This document shows, in pieces, positions 12,610-46,831 of a stretch of 64,000 nt of DNA (positions are counted from its first letter, which is position 1; each line of letters starts with the position of its first letter). Origin of the DNA: Vitreimonas sp. (lineage in GTDB: Bacteria; Patescibacteriota; Microgenomatia; UBA1400; PJMF01); assembly GCA_035627515.1 (NCBI GenBank), contig DASPLQ010000012.1, forward strand, positions 650,331 to 714,330, written 5' to 3'. The translations under genes and the position numbers were made by a program. Under the pieces are notes generated by a model. That model made no database searches, was not told the DNA's origin, and worked only from the letters and a program-made list of their open reading frames with translations.

Positions 12610-12800
12610 TGACGGGGTCTATGCTACAATCAAAAGACCTTCAGGGCAGGGTGCAAGTCCCGATCGGTGGTAAAGCCCACGAGTCCCGAGCTCCGCTCGC
12701 GACATGATTCGGTGAGTCCCGCGCTTAGCGCAGGATAACTCCGAAGCCGGCAGTACAGTCTGAATGAAAGAAGGCACACGTAACTCACAGGTTGAGTTAG
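12610..12800 (+). promoter_or_regulatory. candidate structured 5' leader / cis-regulatory RNA upstream of EamA transporter
   Basis: About 190-nt GC-rich leader. Three copies of GAGTCCCG at 12656, 12682 and 12715. Several short hairpins (GTGG-TAAAGC-CCAC, GCGCT-TAGCGC, CCGATCGG). Ends in gctgtttttt immediately before the transporter gene. Class not identified. Confidence 0.2.
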
Positions 12801-12854
12801 GTGCTGTTTTTTATTCCCTCAAGGTTGGTAAAAAGTAATGTGTTAAGGATCTTT

Positions 12855-13787
12855 ATGATGAAGAGTCTGAAGTTTCAGGGCCCTGTATTAATTGTGATAG
12901 CCGCTATTTTGTGGGCACTTGATGGTGTGGTGCGCCGAAGTTTATTTACGTTGCCTCCCATTACGATTGTGTTTTTAGAACATTTGATTGGCACTGCCTT
13001 GTTACTTCCTTTGATCGCTAAAGAATTTTTGGCCCAAAAATTTACGTCTCGGATTATTGGTTTAGCAATTGCGGTGTCCCTATTAAGTAGTTTGCTAGGA
13101 ACCTTATGGTTTACCACGGCATTAGCCAAGGTTAACTTTATTTCCTTCAGCGTGGTGTTCTTATTGCAAAAGTTACAACCTATTTTTGTGATTTTATCTG
13201 CCACCTTATTACTGAAAGAAAAAATTACACCTAAATATCTGCAATGGGCAGCGTTGGCTTTTGTTGCCGCTTATTTTGTGACGTTCAAAAATGGGTATGT
13301 CAGTTTTGCGACCGGCAACCAAACCGTAATCGCGGCAGGATATGCCTTGGCAGCTGCCGCAGCCTGGGGTATTGGAACTACTTTGTCTAAGTTATTGATG
13401 AGAGAAGTTTCAAGTAATGTGGCCACTGGGTTGCGTTTTATAGGCGCAACAATCTTTGGTCTGCTTGGTGTGATGGTGATGGGGCAATCGGGTAGTTTGA
13501 GTATGGTGGAACCTTCACAATGGGCGCGCTTGGTTTTTATTGCTCTTTCAACTGGGATGGTGGCCTTGTGGATTTATTACCGTGGTCTGCAAAAAACAGA
13601 AGCCAAGATTGCAACTTTGTTGGAACTGGTTTTTCCATTACTAGCAGTTTTTATCGATGCTGTCATTTATAAAAGCTTTTTAGCTCCCAGCCAATATTTA
13701 GCGGCAGTGGTCCTGATGTTTGCACTCTATCAGATTGCTTTACTGCAAAAGCCCGAAAAGGTTGCTTCTCAAGCGAACGAATCTTGA
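12855..13787 (+). CDS. EamA/DMT-family drug/metabolite transporter
   Basis: About 10 predicted TM helices in two homologous halves, typical EamA architecture. Start placed at ATG 12855. Confidence 0.7.
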   Translation: MMKSLKFQGPVLIVIAAILWALDGVVRRSLFTLPPITIVFLEHLIGTALLLPLIAKEFLAQKFTSRIIGLAIAVSLLSSLLGTLWFTTALAKVNFISFSVVFLLQKLQPIFVILSATLLLKEKITPKYLQWAALAFVAAYFVTFKNGYVSFATGNQTVIAAGYALAAAAAWGIGTTLSKLLMREVSSNVATGLRFIGATIFGLLGVMVMGQSGSLSMVEPSQWARLVFIALSTGMVALWIYYRGLQKTEAKIATLLELVFPLLAVFIDAVIYKSFLAPSQYLAAVVLMFALYQIALLQKPEKVASQANES

Positions 13788-13889: not shown

Positions 13890-13979
13890 GGAAGCGTCGC
13901 ATAGTGGCCCAGTGCAACAGGTTGCTAACCTGTACCACAGAAATGTGGTTCGTGGGTTCGAATCCCACCGCTTCCGCCA
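13890..13979 (+). tRNA. tRNA-Ser (anticodon GCT), type II
   Basis: GGAAGCG acceptor stem, anticodon arm ACAGG-TTGCTAA-CCTGT, long variable arm, T-loop GGTTCGAATCC, discriminator G and encoded CCA. Confidence 0.85.
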
Positions 13980-14029: not shown

Positions 14030-14782
14030 ATGAAACACCTCGTCCTTGTTGCTGATGACTTTGGTTTAACTCCGGGAATTAATCGCGGGTGTATAGCCGC
14101 TATCCAAACAGGAATTTTAACTGAGTTGTCATTAATGATGGATTCGCCTGCAACTGCTGAAGGTGTCAAAGCAGTCTTGGATAATAATATTCATGGTCTA
14201 GGTATTCATATTACGCTTCATGACATTGTAGGCACGGGCAGGTATTTGAAAACTGATGACTATAAGCAATTGTTAGCAGAAGCTCCAGCAGCGACGTTAG
14301 CTAATCGAGTTCGAGTCGAATTGCAAAAATTTGAAGAGCTAACGGGGAGAATTCCCACTCACATCAATGGTCATAAGAACTGCCATCTACATCCTAAAGT
14401 TATTGACGTAGTTAATGAGTATGCATTGCAACACGATATTTTTGTGAGACCTTTGATTGCTTTCTCAGATGGCAATAGCGCTGGGCAAGACATGAATGAT
14501 GTTTTGCTACAGCGAGGTGTTAAGTTGACTGATTACATTTTTGAACATATAGTTGGTAGTTTTGATGAAGCTCAGCAAGGTTTTGTAGAAGACTTCACAA
14601 TGGTTGCAGATAATACAGTCACCGAATTTTTCTTTCACCCTGCTTATGTTGATGATTTATTACGACAATTCTCATCCCTGGTTGGTGACCGTGAACGTGA
14701 CGTAAAGTTACTCACTGATAGTGAGTTTAAAAACCAGCTTGAAACTCAAGGAGCAATGATTTCAGGATTTGGAGATATTTAA
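14030..14782 (+). CDS. YdjC/ChbG-family carbohydrate deacetylase
   Basis: N-terminus MKHLVLVADDFGLTPGINRGCIAA is the hallmark of YdjC-like (PF04794) proteins. Start placed at ATG 14030, at the end of the tRNA trailer repeat. Confidence 0.7.
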   Translation: MKHLVLVADDFGLTPGINRGCIAAIQTGILTELSLMMDSPATAEGVKAVLDNNIHGLGIHITLHDIVGTGRYLKTDDYKQLLAEAPAATLANRVRVELQKFEELTGRIPTHINGHKNCHLHPKVIDVVNEYALQHDIFVRPLIAFSDGNSAGQDMNDVLLQRGVKLTDYIFEHIVGSFDEAQQGFVEDFTMVADNTVTEFFFHPAYVDDLLRQFSSLVGDRERDVKLLTDSEFKNQLETQGAMISGFGDI

Positions 14783-16026
14783 TACACCAACGGCCCGGTT
14801 TCTACTGCCTCAAAGGCACTGCCGGGGATTGATTTCAACTGCTCCAATTCTTCATCGTTCCAGTTGGGATGTTGCTGACCACTGATATACCAATCACTGC
14901 CGTTGTCTGCCAGGATCATGCCATATTTTTTCAGCGCGGTAGCAATAACGCGAGCTTGGCCAGTTAAGTTGTTGATGTTGTAATCAGCTTTGAGCCGAAC
15001 TCTGAGGCCCATGGGTGGCAAGTTGGCATTGGTACTGCTGGATGCAAAATGAGTGGCGGGGTGAATAAAGGCTCGTTGTGAATTATTGACAGTAAAGCGA
15101 ATGGCGTGCTTAATTTCTCCCTGTGCGACTTCATCGTACCGGACGAGTCCAGGCAAGATCGGCAGCCCTGCCGCATCAGCTGACGTCCAGTATTGTGGAC
15201 GCAAGGCATTACTACTTAAATCAAAAATGGCGCCTGAGTCAGCATTCCAACTACTTGATTGAGGAAAGGCACGATAGAGCTCATACAATCGGCAGCTTTC
15301 AGTATTGAGGGCAATCACGTGACGGTCACCATCTGAGCTATTTCCACCCTCAATCGGGGCAGTGAGGGGAATAGGATACGGGCCTGGATCACTTTCGTCA
15401 CCATAAGCAGTAAAGTTAATGGGCGTCAAAGCTTGAGAGTTAGTGACGGTGATAAACGGAATGCCATAGGTTTCACCCCAGGTGGCGCCGCCAAAATCGG
15501 GATGAAGTTCTTCATTCGCTCCGATACTGGCAATGTAGCTAGCCGAGTTAGCATGGACAGGGTAACTGGAAATATCGGTGTTCCACGGATTGTTTGCTGG
15601 GAATATTTGGCAACCATTAATACTGGGTGCACCGGAAATAGGTGTCGCACTCGGGCTGGGGCTGGGAATTGGGGTGGGAGATGGTGAAGCTGATGGAGAG
15701 GGTTGTGGTGAGATTGAAGGTGAGGGCGAGGCAGCTGGGCTAGGAGTCGGCGCAGCTACACAGTCTTGTCCTAAAAATAAGAGAAACCATGAATAATCAG
15801 TTAAGTTCGTTTTACCGTCATGATTAATATCGGCTTGGGTATGGGTAGCGCTACTCAACGGAAAACTGTTGAGGAAAATAGTGTAATCAGGAAGATTAAC
15901 CTGGTGGTCTTGATTAAAGTCAGCATCGCAGGCAGTAGGGACTGCTTGAGCCTTTACCCCGACTGGTAGAAGCACATACATGAGTGTTACGATGAGCACT
16001 AAGCTAAGGATAAGATTCTTTTTCAT
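14779..16026 (-). CDS. secreted protein with N-terminal dockerin-like Ca-binding repeats, PS-linker and uncharacterised catalytic-like domain
   Basis: Signal peptide. CDADFNQDHQVNLPDYTIFLNSF...ADINHDGKTNLTDYSWFLLF is a duplicated dockerin type-I-like motif. Then SPSPSASPSPTPIPSPSPSATP linker. C-terminal domain (GMILADNGSDWYISG) not assigned. Confidence 0.6.
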   Translation of the reverse strand: MKKNLILSLVLIVTLMYVLLPVGVKAQAVPTACDADFNQDHQVNLPDYTIFLNSFPLSSATHTQADINHDGKTNLTDYSWFLLFLGQDCVAAPTPSPAASPSPSISPQPSPSASPSPTPIPSPSPSATPISGAPSINGCQIFPANNPWNTDISSYPVHANSASYIASIGANEELHPDFGGATWGETYGIPFITVTNSQALTPINFTAYGDESDPGPYPIPLTAPIEGGNSSDGDRHVIALNTESCRLYELYRAFPQSSSWNADSGAIFDLSSNALRPQYWTSADAAGLPILPGLVRYDEVAQGEIKHAIRFTVNNSQRAFIHPATHFASSSTNANLPPMGLRVRLKADYNINNLTGQARVIATALKKYGMILADNGSDWYISGQQHPNWNDEELEQLKSIPGSAFEAVETGPLVY

Positions 16027-20710: not shown

Positions 20711-20820
20711 TACTCAATAATAGAGGATGAAGATGGCTCTAAACAATATGTAAACTCGATATGTTCGCCTTTTCTTTGTCTCGTCGTAAGTGTAAGAAAT
20801 CTGTAAGATGTGTACCAGGC

Positions 20821-23800
20821 ATGGAAAAAGATCCACGCAGGAGTATTACGTTTCTCGGCATAAGCCGCAGCAAGCGCTTGTTTGCTGTCGGTTTAATTGT
20901 GGTGGCCATAATGCTTTTTTGGTATTGGGATGAGGGAAAAGGTTTACAAGCCAATCGTTCGCAGTCCTCAACTACCAAGCTGGCAGTAGCCACTAAAAAT
21001 GATCGTTCAGAAGGTGAAGTCTTGGCTGCCGAAACCGAAATTGAAGAATCAACTGCCATGTTCCAAGTTAACATTCCTAGTCAATTTGGGGATGTCGTCA
21101 GAGTTGCTGAATTGATTGTCGAAAATCGCTCTCTTTTTGAAGGAATAGCTGAGTTTCAAGATGAAGTAGTGATGAATCAAGCCCTGGAAGTCAAGCAAGA
21201 TTTGACGGTGGGCGGCCGCTTATTATTAACTGGTGATGCGATTGGCCGGGGAGTTGATATCGATATCGAAGACGGCGCCATTACTGCGGGCACCGTCACC
21301 GCGAGCAACTTAGTGTACTCTGTCAAAGCTGGTTCGGGCATTTCAGTAAGTGGTACTCAGGATGTCACCATTTCTGCTACAGATTTGGGTTCATCCCAAC
21401 AGATTTTTAAAAATATTAAAGTGAATAGCGATACCATTACAGCTGGTAGCAACAACGATACTGTTACCTTCAAAGATGGTACCGGTATTTCTCTGACACG
21501 GTCTGGCAATGAAATTACTGTCTCCGGTCGTGACGTCAGCGGTTGGGCTAAAACCGGCAACTATGTGGCGTTAGCTGACACGAGTAATTGGGTAGGAATT
21601 GGTACCAGTACTCCAACCAATAATTTGGAAATTAACTCAGGCACAACCGGCACTTCAGGAGTTACTTTCACTCAATTGACTTCAGCTTCCACCGTGGGTG
21701 TTGGAGGTGGCAAAGTTTTATCAGTTGATTCTGGTGGCCGGATTATTTTAGTTCAGGACCAAACTGGCGACACACCTACCGCTGAATCTGTATTGCCGAC
21801 TGCAGCCAATGGTGAAACCTTATATTTTAATGGACTGAACTGGGTGGCATCTTCCAACCTGTATCACAACGGTGGACAAGTGGGCATTTCCACCACACCA
21901 GCCACTAATGTGAGATTCCATGTTTTAACGAATGCTGCCAACGCCGTCGGTGCAGTTATTCAGCGCGTCACTGGCCAAACAGCCAATTTTATGGAGTTCC
22001 GCAATGAGAGTGGCACGCCATTGTCATACGTTTCGGCTGACGGTGTCTTCCACGGCAATGTCAGTGGTGATATCAGTGGCTCCATTAATGCTGGTCTCAG
22101 TCAGGGGCAAGTGGCTTTTCAAGGAGCGTCAGCTTTGCAAGGCAGTAACTCACTGTTTTGGGATAGTGGTAATAGCCGGTTGGGAGTGGGGACGAATGCT
22201 CCCCAGAAAGCCGTTCATATTTATAATGATTCTGGGCTGTGGGTTCAAAATACTTCTGGTGGTACTGCTTTAACTTCAATTACGGGTGGGTCAGTTAACA
22301 CACTTAACTCGACAACTTTATCTTTGGGGGCTAATGCTAATACTGCTATGACATTAATGTCTAGCGGCAACGTTGGCATTGGTACCACTTCGCCAACCTC
22401 CCTCTTCCATGTTAATGGCAAAACTACAGGCAAAGCACTAGCCATTCTCAACGAAACCGGTAATCAAGATATCTTTACAGCCAGTGCCAGTGGAACTTCG
22501 ATGTTCACCATTAAGAATGATGGAAAAGTGGGGATTGGGACGACTGCACCAACAGCACTACTTAATTTAAGCTCTAGTACTAGTGATCCAACTTTAATTA
22601 TTGATCCGGGGAGTAGCTCAACTGTGGATCCTACAATTGCTCTCTATGATACTACCACCAGTGCTGGTTTTAAAATTCGTTACGATAACGATGGAGGTGA
22701 CAGTTATATTGATAGCATTTTCAACGGTACTGATACGGCTCCAGCGATACGTTTCAGAACAGAGACATCAGCGGTAACAAAAGAAGCTATGACCATTACC
22801 CATGGAGGAAGTGTCGGTATCGGCACCACCTCACCCACCTCACTCTTGCATCTTTCATCAACCTCTACTAGTTTGACCAATGGTTTATTTAAGATGGATT
22901 GGAGTCCGGCTTCAGCCACTACGTTAGCGGGTGATTTGTTTAACCTTAATATTGGCGCTAATGGTAATGCGACCAATGTTTTTAGTATCACTGATTCAGG
23001 TTCGACCTTATTCTCAGTTAGTGAAAGTAAAATTACTTCAGCTATCCCGCATGAGTTTACAGTGGCAGGTGATGTCAGTTTTGGTTATGACATTAACTTA
23101 ATTAATCAAACTGCGGGCAATATTAATAGTAATGGTCCGTTTGCGATTAACGCTGGTGAGGTCTACGAAAATGGCACGCTCACTTTGCGCACGTATAACA
23201 AAGGTCGGGTGGTGGTGGATAGTGAAGCTCTGCTCGTGAATCGGGCAGCCACTATTTCTGGAAAGTTAGTAGCTGGAACTACTAATCCTCCCGTGGCGAT
23301 TGGTCAACTGTATGTGTCGAATGCCGCCACCTATGGTAAAGCTTTAGCCATTTTGAACCAAACTGAGTCGGCTGATATTTTTGCAGCCAGTGCCAGCGGG
23401 ACAAATAGATTTGTAATTACCAGCGCAGGCAGAGTAGGTATTGGAGTTGCTGCTCCAACAAATAACTTAGAGGTGGTAGGAACAAGTAAGATTTCTAGAG
23501 ATTCCAATAGTTATATTGAGTATAACTCCTCAGGTGAAATTCAATATTATTTAAGTGGTTTTAATAAATTTAAAGTTACTAATACAGAAACCTATGCTGA
23601 AGTACTCAGAGCTCCCACTATTAATATGGTTAATAATGGTGTGACGTTAGCGGCCACTGGCTCAGTATTTACTATTTCTAATAATTCTGGTGGCATGACT
23701 GAACGATTAAGAATTACCCAAAGTGGAAGCTTTGGCATGGGCACTAATTCCCCTGATGCGCGATTATCAGTAAATGGAGATTTATCTGCCAACTCTGCCA

Positions 23801-24834
23801 CTATTAGTGGCACGTATGCTGGCAATGTTGCGCTAACCATTAATGCGCTGACTGATGCCGACAGCACCATTCGTTTGCGTGAATCAGGGACTACTAAATG
23901 GAATCTTTTCAATGATGGCGATAATTCCGATAGTTTGTACATCACCGATGCCGGTGGTGATCAAGGTGTGTTCTTGGCTCAAGATGCGACGAGTTGGGCA
24001 GCAGCTTCTGATATTACGCTCAAAGAAAATATTAATTTAGTCGATGGCTCATTGGATAAAATCAAGCAACTGCGTGGCGTGTACTATAACTTCATTGGTA
24101 CGCAGCGGACTGAAGTAGGTTTGATCGCTCAGGAAGTGCAAGCGGTGCTTCCCGAATTAGTTGTCACTAATAATAATGGCAAGTTAGCTGTCATGTACGA
24201 TCGGTTGGCACCGGTGTTAGTGAATGCAATTCAAGAACAACAAGGCCAATTGGATAAACTAGGCAACTTTTCTACCTATGAAGATCGCTTAGCCGCAGTG
24301 GAAGCACAAAATACTGAACAAGATACTGTGCTTGCTCAACTTAAAACCACCTTAAGTGATTTATTTAAAAATGCAGTCACATTCTTAGCTGATGTCACCT
24401 TCAAAGGGTATTTGAAATTTAGCCCTGATCAAACTGGCTACGTAGCTGTCCCAGTGGGTGCCACTGAGGCTAAGGTGACCTTTAAAAACAAAATGCCTTC
24501 AGAACCAATTATTAACCTGACTCCACGCCGCCTCGTAGCCGGGATGAAAGTTGGGGAAGTTAAAGATACTCATTTTATTGTCCAGTTTGAACAACCACTG
24601 GCTGAAGAACTCAGAATTGATTGGTTAGCAACCTTGAAAGATACTGAAAACAGTAATGAGCCAACCGTTGAGTTTGTGATTCCTTCCCCAGTGCCTAATC
24701 TTGTTGTCCCTGAAGCCGCGGCTGCTGAACCGGCTGCCAGCCCCACTCCGGCGCCATCTTCAACTCCTGTCCCCACCGTGGCACCTTCATCAAGTCCTGA
24801 ACCAGTAGCTAGTGAGAGTGCCGCTACACCGTAG
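20821..24834 (+). CDS. giant membrane-anchored surface repeat protein, tail-fibre-like, with S74 intramolecular-chaperone autoproteolysis motif (paralog 1)
   Basis: N-terminal type-II anchor (RLFAVGLIVVAIMLFWYW). Repeated GxVGIGTTSPTSLxHV...KALAIxNETGNQDIFTASASGT modules. At nt 24004-24260, ASDITLKENINLVDG...GLIAQEVQAVLPELVV matches the tail-spike / endosialidase S74 chaperone motif. PS-rich C-terminus. Start placed at ATG 20821. Confidence 0.7.
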   Translation: MEKDPRRSITFLGISRSKRLFAVGLIVVAIMLFWYWDEGKGLQANRSQSSTTKLAVATKNDRSEGEVLAAETEIEESTAMFQVNIPSQFGDVVRVAELIVENRSLFEGIAEFQDEVVMNQALEVKQDLTVGGRLLLTGDAIGRGVDIDIEDGAITAGTVTASNLVYSVKAGSGISVSGTQDVTISATDLGSSQQIFKNIKVNSDTITAGSNNDTVTFKDGTGISLTRSGNEITVSGRDVSGWAKTGNYVALADTSNWVGIGTSTPTNNLEINSGTTGTSGVTFTQLTSASTVGVGGGKVLSVDSGGRIILVQDQTGDTPTAESVLPTAANGETLYFNGLNWVASSNLYHNGGQVGISTTPATNVRFHVLTNAANAVGAVIQRVTGQTANFMEFRNESGTPLSYVSADGVFHGNVSGDISGSINAGLSQGQVAFQGASALQGSNSLFWDSGNSRLGVGTNAPQKAVHIYNDSGLWVQNTSGGTALTSITGGSVNTLNSTTLSLGANANTAMTLMSSGNVGIGTTSPTSLFHVNGKTTGKALAILNETGNQDIFTASASGTSMFTIKNDGKVGIGTTAPTALLNLSSSTSDPTLIIDPGSSSTVDPTIALYDTTTSAGFKIRYDNDGGDSYIDSIFNGTDTAPAIRFRTETSAVTKEAMTITHGGSVGIGTTSPTSLLHLSSTSTSLTNGLFKMDWSPASATTLAGDLFNLNIGANGNATNVFSITDSGSTLFSVSESKITSAIPHEFTVAGDVSFGYDINLINQTAGNINSNGPFAINAGEVYENGTLTLRTYNKGRVVVDSEALLVNRAATISGKLVAGTTNPPVAIGQLYVSNAATYGKALAILNQTESADIFAASASGTNRFVITSAGRVGIGVAAPTNNLEVVGTSKISRDSNSYIEYNSSGEIQYYLSGFNKFKVTNTETYAEVLRAPTINMVNNGVTLAATGSVFTISNNSGGMTERLRITQSGSFGMGTNSPDARLSVNGDLSANSATISGTYAGNVALTINALTDADSTIRLRESGTTKWNLFNDGDNSDSLYITDAGGDQGVFLAQDATSWAAASDITLKENINLVDGSLDKIKQLRGVYYNFIGTQRTEVGLIAQEVQAVLPELVVTNNNGKLAVMYDRLAPVLVNAIQEQQGQLDKLGNFSTYEDRLAAVEAQNTEQDTVLAQLKTTLSDLFKNAVTFLADVTFKGYLKFSPDQTGYVAVPVGATEAKVTFKNKMPSEPIINLTPRRLVAGMKVGEVKDTHFIVQFEQPLAEELRIDWLATLKDTENSNEPTVEFVIPSPVPNLVVPEAAAAEPAASPTPAPSSTPVPTVAPSSSPEPVASESAATP

Positions 24835-24836
24835 TT

Positions 24837-27800
24837 ATGAAGTTACCCATTTTAAAATATTGGCGTAGTCAGTACCGAACATTTTTTTTTGCGTTGTTGA
24901 CTATCTTAAGCTTAGCGATTCCAGCGTGGTACCGATTACACTCACCTAGTGATGCCCGGGCCGGTTGGTTTAATGATCAATGGCAATATCGCAAACGCAT
25001 TCCGCTAACTAATAGTGGTGGCAGTACCGTCACTGACCACCAGGTTCAATTAACTATCGATACCGCCGCGCTTGTTACCTCCGGCAAACTCCAAAGCAAC
25101 TGTGTTGACCTCCGTCTTAACGCTCAAAACACTGATTTTTTGCCATATTGGATTGAACCAGGAACGTGCAATACGACAACCACTAAAGTCTGGGTTCGTG
25201 TCCCTGAAATTCCTACCACTGGTGCAAATATTTGGCTGTACTACGGTAATCCCTCAGCGCTGGATGAATCGAGTGCGGAGCGGGTGTTTCATGCCATTCT
25301 CAAAAACCAGGCGGCAGCCTGGAATATGGATGACAATGTTTCTGGTAATGGTCAAACAATTACCGATGTTAGCGGCAATAGTCGAACAGGTACTATTGTC
25401 GGTTCAGTGAACTGTACAGGTACTGGTCAATTTGATAAAGCCTGTTCACTAACTAGTGGTGGGTATATTGATACTTTTGATACCGGACTTTCAAATCAAT
25501 TAAGTATTTCAGTATGGATTAAGCCCACTTCTGTAGCAACTGCACAAGCAATTATGGGTGAACGTTCGGGAACTAACAGCTGGGCGCTCTATGTTCGACC
25601 CACTGGGGAACTAGGATTCACTTTAAGTGGTTTATCTGATCACATTACAACCGGAGCAGGAGTGACAGCGGGAGTTTGGCAACACGTATTGGTAGTAGTT
25701 AATGGCACTAGTTTAAAAATGTATCGCAATGGAACCCTAGTCAGCGATGTCACTATGGGAGCAACAGTTGCCGACTCTAACCTAACTATGAAAATTGGTG
25801 CTGCAGGTGGTGCTACTAGTCCATATACAGGTGAGATAGATAACCTGCGTTTGTATTCACGGGCTTTCAATGCTGAAGAAATACAACAATTATTAGGCCC
25901 AACCGCAAATTCTCGATATGGATATATGACAAATAACTTGGTAGGCAATGAATTGGTTACAGGTTACAACACTAATGTTACGACTGGCTCACAACAGACT
26001 GAGGAAACAAGTCCACGGCCGATTGCAGTTTGGAATTTTGATGAGGGTAGTGGACAAACTATTAATGATGTCGTGGTGAAAAAAAATCAAGCCATGTTAG
26101 GTGCTAATAGCTCTTCGGCATCAGATGACCCTACCTGGCAAACTGAGGATATGTGTATCAGTGGTAAGTGTTTACGGTTTGATGGTACCAATGATTATGT
26201 CCAAGTGAACAATAATATTAGTACTCAAATAGGCACTGCAGTCACATTTTCGGCTTGGATTAGAACTAATTCGAGTAACAATCCGATGTCGATTATGGGT
26301 AATTACAATTCCGCGGTAGCAGGAGGACCATGGTTTGAAGTGCTGGCAGGTAAAGCGGCTTTCCATAATGGTAGTTCCGGAACTTTAAGTAGTAATAAAT
26401 CAGTTAATGATGGTAAGTGGCATCATGTGGTGGCTACAGTTGGGCCCTCCGATGCAAAGATCTATGTCGATGGCAGTTTAGATAACTCATCAACTTCTTT
26501 TTCACTTTTGAAAACATCCACAACTGCCTATGCCATTGGTGCGGTCTATGCATCTAGTGCTCCCAGTTCATTCTTTAATGGCTTCATTGATGAGCCCAAA
26601 ATTTATCCCTATGTGCGGACAGCTGCCGAAGTCAGGCAAGATTACATTCGGGGTTTAACGAGTGCAGGTGCTAATGCCGCGTTGGGTGTGCCGGAAACCA
26701 GCCATTTAAATAATGGCTTAGCAGCCTACTGGAAAATGGATGAGAGTAGCTGGAATGGGACCAGCTCGGAAGTGATTGATTCGAGTGGTAATAATAATCA
26801 CGGAACTGCGGGCTGCAATGGCGGGTGTGTGGGTTCACCTCCTAGTACTAGTACCGGTAAATTTGGCAATGCGGGTTATTTCACGGTGACAGGCAGTAAC
26901 TATCAGAGGGTTAGTGTGCCTTCTTCTAGCACTTTGCAGATCACTTCAGCAATAACGCTCTGTACTTGGGTTAATGAAGTAGGTACCAACTTTAATGGAT
27001 ATGTGCTTGATGCTAACACGTATCGTTTACAAATGAACTCTGGCGGTAGTATCGATATGCGGGTGACTACTGGCGGTGTCTCAACCGCCTCGCCAAATAG
27101 TGGTACTCTACCCACTAACACTTGGGTGCATATCTGTGGGACCTATGATGGTAGTAAGGTTAGTTTATATAGAGATGGCAGCTTAGTGGGATCAACAGCC
27201 AAAACAGGTACTATTGATACTATCAGCAGTCCAGTTATTAATAATGCTACTGGTGCAACTCGCAACTTAAAATTAGATGAATTCCGTATTTATAACCGAG
27301 CTCTTTCGCCCGCCGAAGTCCAAGATCTCTACGCGTGGACCGCTGGACCGGTGGGGCACTGGAAGTTCGATGAGGGGGAGGGTACGACTGCGAATGATGC
27401 CAGTGGCAATGGCTTAACGGGAACAATTACTTCTGGGACCCAGTGGAGTGAAGGAAGATTTGGCAGCGCACTCAATTTTGATGGGACTCAGCTAGTTCTT
27501 ATCGGTAATTCTGCTCCAGTTCAATTAGGAACGGGTACAGTAGAAGCCTGGATCAAAACCACTAATGCCGGTAGTTCTTTCCGTGGTATCGTAGTTAAGC
27601 AAAACGCCTATGGCATGTTTTTAAATGATAATGTGTTCGGAAGCTATGATTGGGGAGGGACTGGTTTTAATAGTAGTGGCTTAAGTCTTAATGATGGTCA
27701 ATGGCATCATGTCAGTATGACTTTTGATGGCAGTAATAGTACCACCAACTTATATCTTGATGGTACTTTGGTTGACACAGGCAATAACACTGTCTCAGGT

Positions 27801-29981
27801 CATAACACGAGTTTGAGTATTGGGTCCGGTACTGGTGGAGTTAGTCAGACTTTTATTGGCAAAATTGATGATGTTAAACTCTACAACTACGTTCGGACCA
27901 GAGAACAAGTTTTGTTGGATATTAAAGCCAACCGGCCGGCCGCATTGGGGGCACAGGATTCGGTTCCGCCTCCACTTGCCCACTGGAAGTTTGATGAAGG
28001 TAATGGTACCAGTAACGCCGATAGCAGCGGGAATGGCTATACCCTAACTATGGAAAACTCTGAAGGTGATGAGTGGGCGAGTGGCAAATTAGGCTCAGGC
28101 CTACAGTTTGATCGTAATAATGAGCGAGCAGCTCGGGCGGATACCACAGGCTCACCTTTTGATTTAACTCAAGGCACTCTTTCTGCTTGGGTATATCGGA
28201 CTGGACAAGTAAGTGGTTCGGGCAATCAGGGGCGGATTATTAGTAAAGCTGATTTATATGTGCTATTTCTCAATAGTGATGAAGAAGTTCAGTGTTATGG
28301 CAATGGGAGTACCTTGGATTCAAACTACGTCTTACCTCTTAATCAATGGTCACATGTGCTGTGTACGCAAGATTCAGCGAGTACAACTAAAACCCGTAAA
28401 ATTTATGTTAATGGCGTAGAAGTTGCTTCAAGTACCCCAGCTAGTGCGTGGAGTGTTGATAATAATCCTTTGACAGTTGGTAATTATTTTACTGATGGCT
28501 ACTTTTTCCCTGGTTACATCGATGAAGTTAAAATGTGGAACATACCTTTGAATACCGATCAGATTGCGTATGAAGCTAATATCCGATCTGCTGACGTGCT
28601 TGCTTATCAGGCAACCAGTACCGAACAAACTCAAGATGTTGGTTCCAGTAATCCGCCAATAGGTGAGTGGAATTTTGATGAAATGACAGGTGCTACAGCC
28701 AATGATCTCGGGGCAAATGGCTTTGATGGCACGATTACTAACGCAACTTGGGTGCCTGGCCAAATTGGTGGCGCACTCGATTTTGCTGGTAATGCTTGTG
28801 TGTCTACTTCGACTTCTTCAACTCTCAACCCTACTTCCACTATGACGGTGGAAACGTGGGTGTATCTAAATGCCAATCAAGGTTCGTTTGCTTCATTAAT
28901 TTCACGAGATGGCGAATCGGCAGCGCGGGCGTATTCAATAGAACTAGGTAATGCCGGTACGAATCGTTTGAGAGTGTGGTTTGGCGCCGGTGGCAGTCCC
29001 AAAGTAGTTGATTCTACTTCGGCTTTGGCCCTCAACCAGTGGTACCACATTGTGGGGACCTATGATGGCTCTAGTGTGAAGTTGTACATCAATGGCAGAT
29101 TAGATAACAGTTTAAGCACTTCCGGCACGATCACTACTAACACTGACACTTTAGCATTTGGCTGTAGCAGCCAACTCAATGGCGAGTACTTCAACGGTAA
29201 GCTCGATCACGTCAAAATCTACAACTACGCTCGCAGTCAAGCTCAAGTGGCCTATGATTACAACCGCGGTAAACCAATTGCGCACTGGAAAATGGATGAG
29301 TGTCAGGGGACTACAATTTATGATGCTTCGGGAAATAATAATCATGGCACGTTAACAGTCACCGGCCAATCAGTGGGAACCTGTGACACTAGTTCCACAG
29401 CTTGGGGTAGCGGGGCGACAGGAAAATATAATGCTAGCATTAACTTAGATGGTACTGGAGATGAAATTAGCATAGGAGATCCAAGTTCAGGTATTTTTGA
29501 CTTTGGTACTCGAGACTTTACATTAAGTGCGTGGGTCAAAACAACAAGCGGCGAACAAAGCATTATCTCAAAGCAAATAGCTAACACCTGGAACGGTTAC
29601 AATTTTTACATTATGCCTGATGGTAAATTAATTAGCAGTGTTTCCTGGCTTAATAATGGCGCAACCAGTTCTATCACCAGCACCAATAGTGTGAATGACG
29701 GAACATGGAAACATGTGGTGTTTGTCATGAATGGGGCTGATAGAACAAACTGGAAACTCTATATCAATGGTCAAGCTGACAGTTTTACTGAAGCAGGGTC
29801 AGATTTATCAGGTACTGGTATTGATAATACTGTCCCCCTAAGAATTGGTAATCGTGAATATAACGATGCCACTGACTTTATTGGCCAAATCGACGACGTC
29901 AAAGTCTTCAATTACGCTCTCTCTACCGCCCAAGTTCGCAAAGAGTACAACGCGGGGTCAGCGATTTATTTTGGTAATTAA
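24837..29981 (+). CDS. 1714-aa secreted protein: DUF2341-like N-domain followed by about 7 tandem LamG (concanavalin-A-like) domains
   Basis: N-terminal TM/signal. VWVRVPEIPTTGANIWLYYGNP resembles DUF2341. Seven LamG C-terminal beta-strand signatures: IDNLRLYSRAFNAEEIQQL, IDEPKIYPYVRTAAEV, LDEFRIYNRALSPAEVQDLY, IDDVKLYNYVRTREQV, IDEVKMWNIPLNTDQI, LDHVKIYNYARSQAQV, IDDVKVFNYALSTAQV. Confidence 0.7.
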   Translation: MKLPILKYWRSQYRTFFFALLTILSLAIPAWYRLHSPSDARAGWFNDQWQYRKRIPLTNSGGSTVTDHQVQLTIDTAALVTSGKLQSNCVDLRLNAQNTDFLPYWIEPGTCNTTTTKVWVRVPEIPTTGANIWLYYGNPSALDESSAERVFHAILKNQAAAWNMDDNVSGNGQTITDVSGNSRTGTIVGSVNCTGTGQFDKACSLTSGGYIDTFDTGLSNQLSISVWIKPTSVATAQAIMGERSGTNSWALYVRPTGELGFTLSGLSDHITTGAGVTAGVWQHVLVVVNGTSLKMYRNGTLVSDVTMGATVADSNLTMKIGAAGGATSPYTGEIDNLRLYSRAFNAEEIQQLLGPTANSRYGYMTNNLVGNELVTGYNTNVTTGSQQTEETSPRPIAVWNFDEGSGQTINDVVVKKNQAMLGANSSSASDDPTWQTEDMCISGKCLRFDGTNDYVQVNNNISTQIGTAVTFSAWIRTNSSNNPMSIMGNYNSAVAGGPWFEVLAGKAAFHNGSSGTLSSNKSVNDGKWHHVVATVGPSDAKIYVDGSLDNSSTSFSLLKTSTTAYAIGAVYASSAPSSFFNGFIDEPKIYPYVRTAAEVRQDYIRGLTSAGANAALGVPETSHLNNGLAAYWKMDESSWNGTSSEVIDSSGNNNHGTAGCNGGCVGSPPSTSTGKFGNAGYFTVTGSNYQRVSVPSSSTLQITSAITLCTWVNEVGTNFNGYVLDANTYRLQMNSGGSIDMRVTTGGVSTASPNSGTLPTNTWVHICGTYDGSKVSLYRDGSLVGSTAKTGTIDTISSPVINNATGATRNLKLDEFRIYNRALSPAEVQDLYAWTAGPVGHWKFDEGEGTTANDASGNGLTGTITSGTQWSEGRFGSALNFDGTQLVLIGNSAPVQLGTGTVEAWIKTTNAGSSFRGIVVKQNAYGMFLNDNVFGSYDWGGTGFNSSGLSLNDGQWHHVSMTFDGSNSTTNLYLDGTLVDTGNNTVSGHNTSLSIGSGTGGVSQTFIGKIDDVKLYNYVRTREQVLLDIKANRPAALGAQDSVPPPLAHWKFDEGNGTSNADSSGNGYTLTMENSEGDEWASGKLGSGLQFDRNNERAARADTTGSPFDLTQGTLSAWVYRTGQVSGSGNQGRIISKADLYVLFLNSDEEVQCYGNGSTLDSNYVLPLNQWSHVLCTQDSASTTKTRKIYVNGVEVASSTPASAWSVDNNPLTVGNYFTDGYFFPGYIDEVKMWNIPLNTDQIAYEANIRSADVLAYQATSTEQTQDVGSSNPPIGEWNFDEMTGATANDLGANGFDGTITNATWVPGQIGGALDFAGNACVSTSTSSTLNPTSTMTVETWVYLNANQGSFASLISRDGESAARAYSIELGNAGTNRLRVWFGAGGSPKVVDSTSALALNQWYHIVGTYDGSSVKLYINGRLDNSLSTSGTITTNTDTLAFGCSSQLNGEYFNGKLDHVKIYNYARSQAQVAYDYNRGKPIAHWKMDECQGTTIYDASGNNNHGTLTVTGQSVGTCDTSSTAWGSGATGKYNASINLDGTGDEISIGDPSSGIFDFGTRDFTLSAWVKTTSGEQSIISKQIANTWNGYNFYIMPDGKLISSVSWLNNGATSSITSTNSVNDGTWKHVVFVMNGADRTNWKLYINGQADSFTEAGSDLSGTGIDNTVPLRIGNREYNDATDFIGQIDDVKVFNYALSTAQVRKEYNAGSAIYFGN

Positions 29982-29989
29982 GCTTTCCT

Positions 29990-32071
29990 TTGCAGTACTT
30001 ACCTAATCTGTTACTATGGATACAGATGTCAACCGTGGATTCATTTACCCAGCGCGTCATGAACATGATTCTGCCAGCAATGGCGATCATAGTCCCGATA
30101 GTGTTTGTGCCGCTGAGCACAGATTTTTTTACCACCAGTAAAAAAATAGTGTTATTGGTGGTGGCTTCGGTAGCAATTTTGGCTTGGACATGGCGCGGAG
30201 TGCTACGTAAAAAATTTGATTTTTATATCAGTCCAGCCACGGCGCCACTCATTATTTTGTGCATTTTATATGGTGTTTCGACGGCGTTTAGAGCCCCCAA
30301 CTTTTGGCTAGCATTAACTGGTGAAACGACACTTTTTTTAACATTAAGTGTGATTTTTTTAACGGTAACGGCTCTTTTAAAAGAGCAGGCGGTGTTAGTC
30401 CGTACCTATCACTCGTTATTACTCTCTGCCTCTGTTGTGTCCCTGATTGTGATACTGCAATTTTTTAAAATTGGCCAGTTACTGACAGCAGTTCCTTGGT
30501 TAGAAACGCCGTTATTTAATCCCACTGGTGGTCCGCTCACCTTTTTATCTCTCAGTGTGCCTCTCATTGCAGCCAATGCTGCTTTCTTGTATCGTCACCA
30601 GCCACGGCCAAAGCCATTTTATTTTCTGACGACCTTATTATTGGTGGTTGCCTCGTTATTAACAGTGGCTTTATTAGTGATGGAAAAGTTGCAACTAATG
30701 CCGTTGACTGCAGCCTGGGTGATTGGAATCGGGGCCTTACAAAATCCTGGAGTGGCATTATTGGGAACAGGTCCCGGCACCTATGCCGATGTTTATACGC
30801 AGCTTAAACCGGCTTTTATGAACATGACGCCCACTTGGAATGTGGTTTTTTCTAGTTCAGTTAATTATTTCTTTCAACTACTCACTACGGTTGGGTTACC
30901 CGCAGTAGCTTTATATTTATATGCCTTAGGGAGCACTCTCGCAGCCGCCAGCCGCCAGCTCACGAAAAACCGATGGCTCAAAGTTTACACGGCTTTGCTA
31001 CTTAGTTGCGTGGGAATGCAACTCATTTTGCCTCCCAACTTAATGTTAATGTTGATAGTGTTCATCAGTTTGAGTTTAGTGACAATTGAGTTAAAAATAA
31101 CTCAGCTCTCTGCAACCCTTAATCCTTTGCAGAGTAGTGCGGCCCAGATGTTGGGAGCGCCGCGGCGCTTTTGGGAGCAACGATTTGGGGCACATGAACA
31201 AAAATTAAGCTTGTTGTTTTGGTTTATGGGTTTGGTGATTACTGGCGGAGTGCTTTTTTATAATTACGTCCTGGCCCGCGCCTATGCCAGTGAGATAGTT
31301 TTTTATCGCTCTTTGCAAGCCGCGGATCAAAACAATGGCACCGCCGTTTATAACCTTCAAGTCCAAGCCATTAACTTAAAACCATATGAGCCCCAGTATC
31401 ATTTGGCATATGCTCAAACGAATCTCGCGTTAGCTGAGTCATTGGCAGCAAAAAGTGAGGTTAATGATCAAGACAAAGCCACTATTACCCAATTAATTGA
31501 ACAAGCTATCCGAGAAGCTAAAACTGCGGTGCAGTTACAACCGACCAATAGTTTGGCGTGGCAAAACCTAGCGGCTATTTATCGGCAACTGATTGGTTTA
31601 GCTGATGGAGCAGATGAATGGACATTGACGGCTTATCAACAGGCTATAGCCTTAGATCCTAGTAATCCTCAGCTACGCCTAGATTTGGGTGGAGTTTTTT
31701 ATTCGGTAAAAAATTATGGTGAAGCTGTAGGCTACTTTACCCAAGCCGCTCAACTTAAACCCGACTGGGCTAATGCCTATTACAACTTAGCAATGGCGTA
31801 TCGCGATGGCGGAGAGCCGCAACTAGCAGTCCAAGCCATGCGTGTAGTAGCCGAACTCATTGATCCTACGAGTACCGAGTATCAACAAGTGCAAACAGAG
31901 CTCAAAGCTTTAGAAGCTGATTTGCCGACAGAAATAACCCCACCTCAGCCTTTACCAGTCAGTGATGACACAGAAGAGGAAGAAGTACTCACGAAGCCTT
32001 CACCATTGCCTTCACCTACTTTGAAAGAGGAAATCGAACTTCCGGCTGATGTAGCCCCAAATTCACCCTAA
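29990..32071 (+). CDS. O-antigen-ligase-like (Wzy_C) polytopic membrane protein with C-terminal TPR repeats
   Basis: At least 10 TM helices, with a periplasmic-loop GIGALQNPGVALLGTGPG. C-terminal TPR-like repeats (AYYNLAMAYRDGG, LAWQNLAAIYRQL). Confidence 0.6.
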   Translation: MQYLPNLLLWIQMSTVDSFTQRVMNMILPAMAIIVPIVFVPLSTDFFTTSKKIVLLVVASVAILAWTWRGVLRKKFDFYISPATAPLIILCILYGVSTAFRAPNFWLALTGETTLFLTLSVIFLTVTALLKEQAVLVRTYHSLLLSASVVSLIVILQFFKIGQLLTAVPWLETPLFNPTGGPLTFLSLSVPLIAANAAFLYRHQPRPKPFYFLTTLLLVVASLLTVALLVMEKLQLMPLTAAWVIGIGALQNPGVALLGTGPGTYADVYTQLKPAFMNMTPTWNVVFSSSVNYFFQLLTTVGLPAVALYLYALGSTLAAASRQLTKNRWLKVYTALLLSCVGMQLILPPNLMLMLIVFISLSLVTIELKITQLSATLNPLQSSAAQMLGAPRRFWEQRFGAHEQKLSLLFWFMGLVITGGVLFYNYVLARAYASEIVFYRSLQAADQNNGTAVYNLQVQAINLKPYEPQYHLAYAQTNLALAESLAAKSEVNDQDKATITQLIEQAIREAKTAVQLQPTNSLAWQNLAAIYRQLIGLADGADEWTLTAYQQAIALDPSNPQLRLDLGGVFYSVKNYGEAVGYFTQAAQLKPDWANAYYNLAMAYRDGGEPQLAVQAMRVVAELIDPTSTEYQQVQTELKALEADLPTEITPPQPLPVSDDTEEEEVLTKPSPLPSPTLKEEIELPADVAPNSP

Positions 32072-32131
32072 AAATTCGCCTTTTCTTTGTCTCGCGGTGA
32101 GTGTAAGAACTCTGTAAGATGTGTACCAGGC

Positions 32132-35100
32132 ATGGAAAAAGATCCACGCAGGAGTATTACGTTTCTCGGTTTAAGCCGCAGCAAGCGCTTGTTTGCTGTC
32201 GGTTTAATTGTGATGGCAGGAATAGCATGGTGGTCGATCCGACCAAACAGGCTTCTCGAGCCCAGTGGTGATCAATTGGCAGTCGCACAGGGAAAAAGCG
32301 TAGGCTCTGGTCGAGTTCTAGGTACTGACACCGAAGAGATTACCCCAGCCACGTTTCAAGTCCAAGTGGCGACAGTGTTCTCAGATGTGGTGAGGATCGC
32401 AGAGTTGAGTGTGGCAGAAGGTTCAGTGTTTGCAGGGCTGGCTGAGTTTCAAGATGAAGTCATCATGCGCGCCAATGCTGAAGTAAGAGGTGATTTAACA
32501 GTTGGTGGGCGGTTAATTTTGAATGATGATGCGTTTGGCAATGACATTGATATCGATATCGAACAAGGCACCATCACTGCTGGCACCGTCACCGCCGATA
32601 ACTTAGTCTACTCAGTTAAAGCTGGCTCGGGCATTTCGGTCAGTGGCACACAGGACGTGACTATTTCCGCCACTGATTTAGGTTCTTCGCAAAAGATTTT
32701 TAAAAACGTTAAAGTCAATAGTGACACCATTACAGCAGCCAATAATGAAGACACCCTCACCCTCAAAAATGGTTCTGGTGTTAACTTATCTCGATCCGGC
32801 AATGAAATTACTTTTGCCAGCGATAACATTAGTGGCTGGGTGCGCTCAGGTAGTTATGTGGCCTTGGTAGATGCTACCACTTCCGTAGGTATTGGGACCG
32901 CTACCCCCACCAATAAACTGGAAATCAATTCCGGTACCACTCACACTTCTGGTCTCACCTTTAGTCAAATGACGTCTGCCTCTACGGTCGGGGTTGGGGG
33001 CGGTAAAGTATTGTCAGTCGATTCTGGTGGCCGAGTGATTTTAGTGCAGGACCAAACGGGTGACACTCCCGATGCAGAATCAGTTTTGCCTTCTACAACT
33101 ACTGGTGGCACCTTATATTTCAATGGCCTGAACTGGGTAGGCAGCACCAATCTCTATCACAATGGTGGTCAAGTGGGTATTTCCACTACACCTGCTGCCA
33201 ACTCACGTTTTCATGTTCTAACGAATGCCGTGGATAAGGTTGGGGCAGTGATTCAGCGCGTTGTTTCTCAGACGGCAAATTTGTTAGAGTTTCGTGATGA
33301 AAATGGTAATGCGCTGAGTTATTTTGATGAAGAGGGCGTTTATCATGGTGAAGCAGAGTTAACGGGCTCGATTACTGGCTCTATTAACCCTGGTTTAGTC
33401 CAAGGACAAGTAGCTTATCAAGGAGCTTCTGCTTTGGCTGGTAGCAACTCATTATTTTGGGATGCTGGTAACTCGCGCTTAGGGATTGGAACTAATGGGC
33501 CTTCTTCTCAGTTACACCTCAACTCAAGTACAGACGGGACAACTACTGGCATTACTTTAGCTAGCCAATACAACACGCTCAAGCTGTATGGCCGAGGTAA
33601 CTCACCAGCTAGCTCAGTTATCGAATCGAGCGGGAGCTTTCCAGGAATCACTTTTAGAACTGGTTCTAGTCCTGCTGATCGTATGTACTTAGATCTGGTT
33701 GGTAAATTAGCACTAGGGCACACTTCACCAGTGGGCTTATTTGATGTCAGTGGCAAGGTCACCGGTAAAGCTCTAAATATTCTTAACGAAACCGGTAACC
33801 AAGATATTTTCACCGCCTCGGCTTCAGGAACTTCACGGTTCACGATTAAGAATGATGGGAGTGTGGGTGTAGGCACAGTGAGTCCAAGTCAGGCCCTACA
33901 TGTAGTTGGTAATTTAGCCGTCGAAGGTGTGGAAACTGGGACAGGAGGCATAGCTGAAAATAGTGGACGCATTAGAGTTGGGAATCGAACTAATGGAGGT
34001 GTGACCACGAAATACTTAGAAATGTGGAGTAACTGGGATACCCCTGTTATTCAAAGTGTTGGATATGGGCAGCCCTTATCTATCACTTCATCAACTGGTC
34101 GAATAAGCATGAATCCTATTAGCTCAGGGGGTACGGCCACTAATTCGAACAATATGATTTTTTTGAGAGTGGGTCATGGGGCAGGGAGTACGAGTAACGT
34201 CAGTCCGGCAATAGCTGGTTCAGGAGGGCTTGGTGTCTGGGCCAGTGATATTAACTCTAGTTTACTGATTATTGATACTTCAACAGCTGGGCATAATCGC
34301 CCTCTGATTGAAGCCAGCGAGGCAACGGTATCTCGTCTCTATTTGCATCAGGATGGTCGGTTAGGTCTCAATAACAGTTCACCAACTGGCACCTTACACG
34401 TTGTGACTGGTTCAACAGCTGGTAAAGCATTGACAATTTTTAATGAAACCGGTGATCAGAATATTTTGACTGCTTCAGCCTCCGGTACCACGCGGATGGT
34501 TTTAACTAATAATGGGCTGTTAGGAGTGGGAACAACTTCTCCGACTTCCAGAGTCCACGTTCAAGGGGATTTAGCCGTGACCGATGGATCTGGTAATCCA
34601 GGTATACTGAGAATTGGTACCAATGAAAAAGGCCTCCTGTATTTGACTGGTAGTACCTTAGCTCTTCAAAGTAATAATTATCCTATTACTATTCAATCAA
34701 TCGGAGGTGCTTTTGGTGGATATATTCGTTTCAATCTAGGTGGAACTGAAGCCATGAGATTAACAAGCGCCGGGAATTTTGGCATTGGAACTACCGCTGC
34801 AACTTCGCCACTACATGTTAACGCTGGGTATGGCTCAAATGCCTTGGCTGCTTTCAATCAACTCAATGGTGGTGACATTCTGACAGCTAGCGCCAGTGGT
34901 ACTACCCGGATGGTGTTAAGTAATGCTGGGCGGTTGGGATTAAACACTCTTACTCCAGGCGCCTTAGGTGATTTTGCCGCTCCTACGAGTACGGTTGGTT
35001 TGATTGTTAGAGCTACTGCTTCCGGCGGACAGAATGCTCAAGAGTGGTACAACAATGGTAATTCTTTAACAGCGGCTGTTAACAATCAAGGTAGCTTTTA

Positions 35101-46712: not shown

Positions 46713-46795
46713 GGAGAGGTCGCATAGTGGCCTAGTGCAGCGGTTTACTAAACCGCCGTTCGCAAGAACCGGGGGTTCGAATCCCCCCCTCTCCG
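46713..46795 (+). tRNA. type-II (Ser-like) tRNA with apparent anticodon ACT
   Basis: GGAGAGG/CCTCTCC acceptor stem. D-arm identical to the tRNA-Ser(TGA) at 6554. Anticodon arm GCGGT-TTACTAA-ACCGC (U33 A34 C35 U36 A37). Long variable arm, GGTTCGAATCC T-loop and discriminator G. Confidence 0.6.
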
Positions 46796-46831
46796 CACAT
46801 ATACTTTTACATATGCAAACCGAATGAACTC

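Follow-up and report, generated by a model that had tools for sequence, protein, structure and literature searches.

A 64-kb window (the whole stretch of DNA analysed, 64,000 nucleotides of contig DASPLQ010000012.1) from a genome of the Candidate Phyla Radiation (CPR, Patescibacteria) encodes a surface fibre protein, here called P1, in which profile searches place a complete Peptidase_S74 domain with an intact catalytic dyad well inside the chain. Phage tail-fibre-like modules precede this domain, and a neck, a modelled lectin-like β-sandwich and a mucin-like tail follow it. We put at roughly 0.6 the probability that P1 is an anchored, trimeric, phage-fibre-like adhesin whose S74 domain cleaves its own chain at Ala1082|Ser1083, a figure that applies to this whole chain of steps. 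Residues are numbered throughout from the mechanical open reading frame (ORF) beginning at 20761, in which the called start is Met21 (nt 20821); coordinates of the features are collected in Table 1.

Results

The S74 domain and its catalytic dyad

The original prediction, made from the sequence alone, had seen a phage endosialidase-type chaperone motif in a bacterial surface protein and had proposed a search with Peptidase_S74 (PF13884) as a check. That search returned a score of 54 bits for P1 (cut-off 22; E 2.1e-14), covering model positions 1–57 of 58, and 58.5 bits when the region was searched in isolation. The peptides first quoted are present in the translated ORF: ASDITLKENI runs from aa 1082 and EVGLIAQEVQAVLPELVV from aa 1118 (nt 24112), and the dyad is intact as S1083-D-I-T-L-K1088, an S-D-x-x-x-K arrangement in which Ser1083 is encoded by nt 24007–24009 and Lys1088 by nt 24022–24024. 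Across the motif, 11 PHROG families of tail-fibre, baseplate and virion-structural proteins matched P1. A profile built from P1 and 20 relatives (A5) matched solved structures in the PDB, with the chaperones of S16 gp37 (6F45, 9.5e-18), a tail fibre (8JOV, 1.1e-16), MYRF (7DC3, 8.6e-15), T5 pb1 (8HQZ, 1.2e-6) and GA-1 (3GUD, 1.2e-6) among the matches. By these profile matches, P1 aa 1083 to ~1190 is a complete S74 intramolecular-chaperone/autoprotease domain, with the scissile bond predicted at Ala1082|Ser1083. It is the single S74 domain within the window. Together with the chromosomal setting described below, the Pfam, PHROG and PDB results bear out the initial assignment of this domain to a bacterial, non-phage protein.

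The S74 domain of P1 does not lie at the extreme C-terminus, as 274 residues follow Ser1083. The earlier count of 275 further residues was thus right as a distance, but not all of these residues are extra. In 120 S74 relatives, a median of 101 aa separates the Ser from the C-terminus. The PHROG profiles reach their ends at P1 aa 1167–1188, the PHROG and PDB alignments taken together stop at about aa 1168–1190, and the chaperone chains of known structure stop close to profile positions 113–121. Because canonical S74 modules end ~100 aa past the Ser, the ordinary chaperone of P1 runs to ~aa 1190, and the true extension comprises only ~165 aa (about aa 1190–1357). The start of the region originally given, 24000–24834, lies two bases out of frame, a trivial point that only garbles a direct translation; the right frame is that of the ORF beginning at 20761.

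Both residues of the dyad were kept in all 54 alignable sequences of the same architecture (48 as SD...K and 6 as SS...K), and in 120/120 ordinary C-terminal S74 relatives. Strict retention of this kind favours an S74 domain that cleaves.

The C-terminal extension

An AlphaFold2 (AF2) model of the extension, computed with a 53-sequence multiple sequence alignment, reached a pLDDT of 93.3 and consisted of a helix (aa 1190–1203), an extended neck (aa 1204–1224) and six strands (aa 1225–1291). Foldseek searches of the PDB with this model gave probabilities of 1.0 for the C-terminal domains of the Sf6, LKA1, phi297 and Pam1 tailspikes, for Helix agglutinins and for an R-pyocin fibre, including 4Q56, 2CCV and 2CGY (TM-scores 0.45/0.54), and of 0.96–0.99 for discoidin II (2VM9/2VME). 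In BFVD, the model matched proteins bearing the name 'H-type lectin domain' as well as tailspikes and tail fibres. The sandwich is thus modelled with confidence, and its modelled fold is that of H-type lectins and tailspike C-terminal domains.

Sequence profiles pointed in the same direction at lower scores. The Pfam model H_lectin (PF09458) gave weak matches in 44 of 53 family members at E ≤ 1 (best 3.6e-6), and a profile of the family searched against the PDB had Helix pomatia agglutinin as its top match, at an E-value of only 0.18. The extension of P1 belongs to no PHROG family. Its neck repeat showed a weak match to chlorovirus P14 (6NCL), and this segment may form a trimeric β-helix.

The chain ends in a low-complexity tail. 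As first noted from the translation, this Pro/Ser-rich end has a real counterpart in the paralog of P1 encoded downstream (paralog 2), and comparable tails (median 44 aa, P/S/T/E-rich) follow the domain in 91 of 150 family representatives. A C-terminal sorting signal was considered for P1 and rejected, the tail having no LPXTG motif, no PEP-CTERM and no transmembrane segment.

Recurrence of the architecture

The extent of the extension family emerged only from an exhaustive HMMER search of protein clusters at 50% identity with a two-sequence profile (P1 and paralog 2). At E ≤ 1e-3 this gave 1698 representatives, of which 198 reached E ≤ 1e-10; in nearly all of them the domain lies close to the C-terminus of a protein of 1000–5000 aa. 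A word-indexed protein search with the 275-aa C-terminus had found matches to the S74 part only, at coverage ≤61%, and word-indexed searches with alignments of the extension had found either nothing or one 92-aa fragment. Since the lectin-like domain scores below the Pfam threshold, such proteins appear in public annotation either as hypothetical or under the name 'Peptidase S74 domain-containing'.

An S74 domain stands upstream of the extension in 60 of the 150 best representatives. At least 55 clusters carry a full S74 start, with the Ser 210–434 aa from the C-terminus and a variable linker of 2–223 aa before the extension. Pairwise identities across the family average 33% in the S74 domain and 31% in the extension, which is thus as constrained as the chaperone. 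In the closest relative of P1, P0123, identity is 64% in the extension versus 35% in the S74 domain, a contrast that suggests module shuffling. Several paralogs of the family occur on one contig, and all three named members with S74 plus extension are Patescibacteria (Candidatus Beckwithbacteria, Candidatus Parcubacteria and a 'Patescibacteria group bacterium').

By eye, two further members of the extension family, P0126 and P0160, end after the lectin-like domain in a segment that resembles an SH3b wall-binding domain (...LNVRSEP...GEVLPGE.Y......WY.I......GWV...Y).

Genomic setting of P1

The P1 gene is chromosomal and lies in a Microgenomates-like CPR genome. Directly upstream, on the opposite strand, are the ATP synthase alpha, gamma and beta genes, and the AtpD product is ~52% identical to those of Levyibacteriota, Daviesbacteria and Microgenomates metagenome-assembled genomes. 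Downstream, on the same strand as P1, are genes for a DUF2341/LamG protein, a membrane/TPR protein and paralog 2, followed by LytR_C, an HD hydrolase, an M48 peptidase and a DsbA-like protein. The DUF2341/LamG gene starts 3 nt past the P1 stop codon and, judging from this spacing only, is probably co-transcribed with P1 as part of the same surface-protein cluster. The polytopic N-terminal part of the membrane/TPR protein had no significant Pfam or PHROG match; by eye, this protein is like O-antigen-ligase or glycosyltransferase-type membrane proteins.

Among 50,697 GenBank phage records, 1028 matched the S74 part of P1 and none covered 80% of the S74-plus-extension query, a search whose sensitivity for a divergent extension is limited.

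N-terminal region and shaft

The only stretch of P1 in which 17-aa windows exceed a Kyte-Doolittle mean of 1.9 is aa 40–56, and this hydrophobic segment, which basic residues precede, is predicted from hydropathy to be an N-terminal signal-anchor. Repeated '(V/L)G(I/V)GT..P' fibre motifs were found by a motif scan in the proximal region and continue to aa ~1000. Further along, two PHROG tail-fibre profiles (phrog_5668 and phrog_5481) align contiguously from aa 856/857 to aa 1168/1188, spanning the distal shaft and the chaperone; the end of the shaft, aa 856–1082, would become the new C-terminus upon the predicted cleavage. In relatives, the shafts upstream of S74 carry modules that are all trimeric, namely YadA-head repeats, HylP triple-helix or collagen repeats. 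No NCBIfam model matched either paralog, and a scan of contigs with an N-terminal alignment of both found no relative.

At the DNA level, P1 and paralog 2 share a near-identical stretch (blastn alignment of the P1 leader with 32075..32217; 143 nt, 95% identity) that comprises ~57 nt of 5' leader and the first ~29 codons. The identity starts abruptly at TTCGCCTTTTCTTTG, and the remainder of the shared N-terminal region is at ~71–75% DNA identity. Recent gene conversion could account for this stretch, as could a regulatory leader common to both genes.

Table 1. Features of P1 and of the neighbouring surface-protein genes (positions in the window; all on the + strand)
Feature	Position	Residues of product	Evidence
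P1 gene, 1337-aa surface fibre protein	20821..24834	from Met21	public call; product P0122 100% identical, starts MEKDPRR
Mechanical ORF of P1, 1357 codons	20761..24834	1-1357	ORF list, translation
5' leader and first ~29 codons of P1	20764..20906		DNA alignment, blastn
Conserved proximal region, 63% identical to paralog 2	20776..22569	6-603	BLASTP
Hydrophobic segment LFAVGLIVVAIMLFWYW, basic residues before it	20878..20928	40-56	Kyte-Doolittle
Phage-tail-fibre-like distal shaft/tip	23326..24006	856-1082	PHROG profiles
Peptidase_S74 / ICA core	24007..24162	1083-1134	Pfam, PDB profile matches, dyad conservation
Helical stalk of chaperone, with LVNAIQEQQ	24163..24369	1135-1203	PHROG/PDB alignment ends, AF2 helix
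'F..V.F..DV.F.G' β-repeat neck	24370..24432	1204-1224	family consensus, extended in AF2 model
Six-stranded β-sandwich, modelled H-type-lectin / tailspike C-terminal fold	24433..24633	1225-1291	AF2, Foldseek
Pro/Ser/Thr/Ala-rich low-complexity tail, 51 aa	24679..24831	1307-1357	translation
1714-aa protein, N-terminal hydrophobic segment, DUF2341, seven LamG (Laminin_G_3) domains	24837..29981		Pfam
693-aa polytopic membrane protein, C-terminal TPRs, P/E/S-rich end	29990..32071		Pfam, translation
Paralog 2, 1420 aa as called	32132..36394 (ORF 32087..36394)		Pfam, BLASTP, translation
Replacement module of paralog 2 at the place of S74, ~105-130 aa, GIQLFAVDQSGSHELRVMDEAGNITTLSPHNF	35441..35758	1119-1224 (paralog 2)	profile conservation

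Paralog 2

Encoded ~7 kb away, paralog 2 matches P1 over the N-terminal ~600 aa and again at the C-terminal end, where its identity to the P1 extension is 30–32% and where a lectin-like domain (35852..36184) is followed by a PS-rich tail (36227..36391). As had been suspected from its missing dyad sequence, it contains no S74 domain, either by Pfam (no match at E ≤ 10) or by a custom S74 hidden Markov model. The segment that takes the place of S74 had no significant Pfam or PHROG match. At least 17 further family representatives without S74 have it too, directly before their lectin-like domain and very strongly conserved (E 1e-36 to 1e-62). Possibly it serves assembly as an alternative to S74.

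Other features of the window

Five tRNA-Ser genes (CGA, UGA, GCU, ACU and GGA) are dispersed over the window, including tRNA-Ser(GCU) at 13890..13979. The gene with anticodon ACU (46713..46796, +), called as a tRNA-Ser, is a class-II tRNA with the loop U-U-A-C-U-A-A on a 5-bp stem; its A34 is unusual in bacteria. An FMN riboswitch (Rfam RF00050, 82 bits) was found at 12633..12779 (+), upstream of an ORF at 12801..13787. A 415-aa ORF adjoining the ATP synthase genes (14779..16026, −) gave a dockerin type I match at E 3e-5, barely over the Pfam cut-off.

Discussion

Proposed mechanism and alternatives

In the mechanism that we favour, P1 would be exported by the Sec pathway and held at the cell surface by its N-terminal signal-anchor. 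Being built from phage-tail-fibre-type modules, it is most probably a homotrimer, with the S74 domain predicted to bring the chains of the preceding shaft into register and into a trimer, as its counterparts do in K1F endosialidase, T5 pb1, Bdellovibrio MAT fibres and MYRF. In the finished trimer, the Ser1083/Lys1088 dyad would cut at Ala1082|Ser1083, yielding an anchored fibre (Met21–Ala1082; 1062 aa, ~110 kDa) and an acidic C-terminal fragment of 275 aa (29.7 kDa, isoelectric point 4.6). Unlike the bare pro-peptide of phages, this fragment would consist of chaperone, neck, lectin-like sandwich and mucin-like Pro/Ser/Thr (PST) tail. Since it carries more than the chaperone, cleavage would either shed a trimeric lectin-like module or keep it non-covalently, and would expose a new fibre tip. 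The analysis shows which domains are present, that the dyad is intact, how the extension folds in the model, that the gene is chromosomal and that the architecture recurs; the trimer, the topology, the cleavage and the fate and ligand of the released module are predictions.

Several observations weigh against this reading. Cleavage would detach a domain that is conserved at least as well as the chaperone and that forms, uncleavably, the terminus of paralog 2, and a disposable role for such a domain is unlikely. The signal-anchor topology of P1 comes from hydropathy alone. When the whole C-terminal region was modelled by AF2 from the single sequence, the pLDDT was 43, with stalk helices of low confidence. 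For the sandwich, the Foldseek TM-scores are modest (0.45–0.54), family members checked at full length score 18–19 bits for H_lectin against a cut-off of 24, and the P1 extension itself has no Pfam match at E ≤ 10; with modest TM-scores and sub-threshold sequence scores, we therefore call the domain 'H-type-lectin-like' and not a certified member of the family. Finally, the taxonomic attribution of the S74-plus-extension family leans on its three named members and on contig sizes.

A further step can be put forward tentatively, namely that the S74 domain of CPR fibres, elsewhere a disposable folding cap, has been turned into a programmed break-point between two functional trimeric modules. Fibre assembly would then by itself release the lectin-like head with its mucin-like tail, or keep it bound non-covalently, and would unmask a second binding tip on the anchored shaft. 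The product would be an adhesin that works in two stages or switches tips, or else a lectin that is secreted, with which an episymbiont would find or hold its host. This goes beyond self-cleavage as such, and we regard it as possible rather than probable.

It is unlikely that the S74 domain of P1 does not cleave at all and serves as a permanent in-line trimerisation node, with the lectin-like sandwich as a covalently attached distal receptor-binding tip. Such an arrangement would fit an extension conserved as much as S74 or more. It would also fit the position of the lectin-like domain in paralog 2 and in the ~90 of 150 family representatives that lack S74, where this domain ends the chain and cannot be cleaved off; tailspike C-terminal domains with this fold are, moreover, normally retained functional parts. 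The dyad argues the other way. Its Ser and Lys have no known role besides proteolysis, yet both are kept in 54/54 alignable sequences of this architecture at ~33% mean identity, and every intact-dyad S74 domain that has been tested cleaves, including the internal domain of MYRF (PMC3742443) and the bacterial Bd3182 (PMC10769870).

Quite unlikely, in our estimation, is a third possibility, in which cleavage frees the fibre from a C-terminal module for envelope retention or sorting, the lectin-like domain and PST tail binding glycans of the cell's own wall or S-layer, or guiding export. A loose analogy exists in other bacterial S74 proteins (P0004, P0012 and P0094), which have a Por_Secre_tail sorting β-sandwich downstream; a great many giant proteins of different kinds, besides, end in this extension at their C-terminus, and the ends of P0126 and P0160 look SH3b-like, that is wall-binding, by eye. 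Against this, P1 already has a predicted N-terminal signal-anchor for Sec export and retention, its C-terminus lacks sortase, PEP-CTERM and transmembrane signals, and the fold matches are to receptor-binding tips of phages and not to known anchors.

An origin of P1 as the tail-fibre gene of a phage, prophage or tailocin is very improbable despite the strong PHROG tail-fibre matches at aa 856–1188 and an extension fold that is common in phage tailspikes, as there are no phage genes around P1 but an ATP synthase operon upstream and housekeeping and surface-protein neighbours, P1 has a predicted N-terminal membrane anchor and a paralog 7 kb away, S74-plus-extension family members lie on contigs of 0.99–1.21 Mb (a usual size for CPR genomes), and, in a search of limited sensitivity for the divergent extension, 0 of the 1028 S74-matching phage records extend into the extension, which has no PHROG family. 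A prophage or tailocin origin was accordingly rejected on gene context.

Comparison with known systems

The self-cleaving anchored fibre that we favour for P1 has its closest organisational parallel in the mosaic adhesive trimer (MAT) fibres of Bdellovibrio bacteriovorus, which are, like P1, chromosomally encoded cell-surface proteins of ~1000 aa composed of phage-like modules (PMC10769870). One of these, Bd3182, has been shown experimentally to undergo S74 cleavage at Ser782, and the substitution S782A blocks it (PMC10769870). As with P1 and paralog 2, some paralogs of the MAT family end in S74 and others lack it, while the N-terminal part is conserved and the ends vary; the analogy is one of organisation only. 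MAT S74 domains have the same SDxxxK dyad. Bdellovibrio fastens itself to other cells, a habit also ascribed to CPR episymbionts. There are differences: in MAT fibres the S74 domain terminates the chain, whereas in P1 it is followed by the neck, the lectin-like sandwich and the PST tail, and MAT proteins have a cleaved signal peptide and a MAT N-domain (β-rich, ~130 aa), whereas P1 has a predicted signal-anchor in a monoderm-like CPR bacterium.

P1 belongs to the same sequence family as the phage chaperones (K1F endosialidase CIMCD, T5 pb1, S16/T4-like gp37 and GA-1 gp12; MEROPS S74), with which it shares the dyad, the helical stalk and the GxIAQEV...P motif, and its shaft region upstream of S74 is homologous to phage tail-fibre shafts. 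Phage modules, however, end ~100 aa past the Ser, none of the 1028 matching phage records reaches into the additional domain, and the context of P1 is cellular.

The ICA domain of MYRF offers a precedent for an internal domain whose trimerisation-dependent self-cleavage separates two functional parts (PMC3742443, PMC8326128). As in P1, a large C-terminal portion lies downstream of the S74/ICA domain. In MYRF, a eukaryotic transcription factor, the membrane anchor is downstream and the N-terminal part is released; in P1, a bacterial adhesin by our reading, the anchor is predicted to be N-terminal and the downstream part has no transmembrane segment.

The six-stranded sandwich modelled for P1 is common to H-type lectins (Helix pomatia and Helix aspersa agglutinins, the C-domain of discoidin I/II), to tailspike C-terminal domains (Sf6, LKA1 gp49, phi297 gp61, Pam1) and to R-pyocin fibres. 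These proteins and the P1 family also have in common the pattern V.F...Y...P.V.vtp ... GF.i ... W.A and a location at the distal end of fibres that are trimeric, or for P1 predicted to be so, although P1 has no Pfam H_lectin match and its relatives fall under the curated cut-off. Both H-lectin and Peptidase_S74 occur among the tail-fibre domains of extracellular contractile injection systems (eCIS), though not as an ordered pair (PMC12923769).

P0004, P0012 and P0094, noted above, are short bacterial proteins from metagenomes in which S74 is followed by a C-terminal sorting domain of the type IX secretion system (T9SS). Like P1, these uncharacterised proteins have an internal S74 domain with a C-terminal β-sandwich ~75 aa later, at a distance of ~200 aa from the Ser to the end; the downstream domain is Por_Secre_tail, a Bacteroidota-type secretion signal, and not lectin-like.

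Implications

Little is known of how CPR bacteria (Patescibacteria) attach to their hosts, and most of their giant surface proteins lack annotation. P1 is not categorically new: S74 domains are known from cellular bacterial fibres (MAT), and an internal, cleaving ICA domain is known from MYRF. In a full-text literature search, we found no account of an H-type-lectin-like domain placed after S74, nor of S74 fibres in Patescibacteria.

The locus described here indicates that CPR bacteria use phage-tail-fibre-type fibres with a catalytically intact S74 module (the dyad being kept and activity predicted), as does the predator Bdellovibrio. It also defines a widespread and unannotated C-terminal lectin-like domain, present in ~1,700 clusters at 50% identity, a good number of which have S74 ahead of it. 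If the S74 domain of these fibres cuts, a defined trimeric lectin-like product of ~30 kDa would result, and the uses of S74 would extend beyond the throw-away chaperone of phages and the transcription-factor release of MYRF. If it does not cut, P1 would be the first case of an intact-dyad S74 domain in purely structural use.

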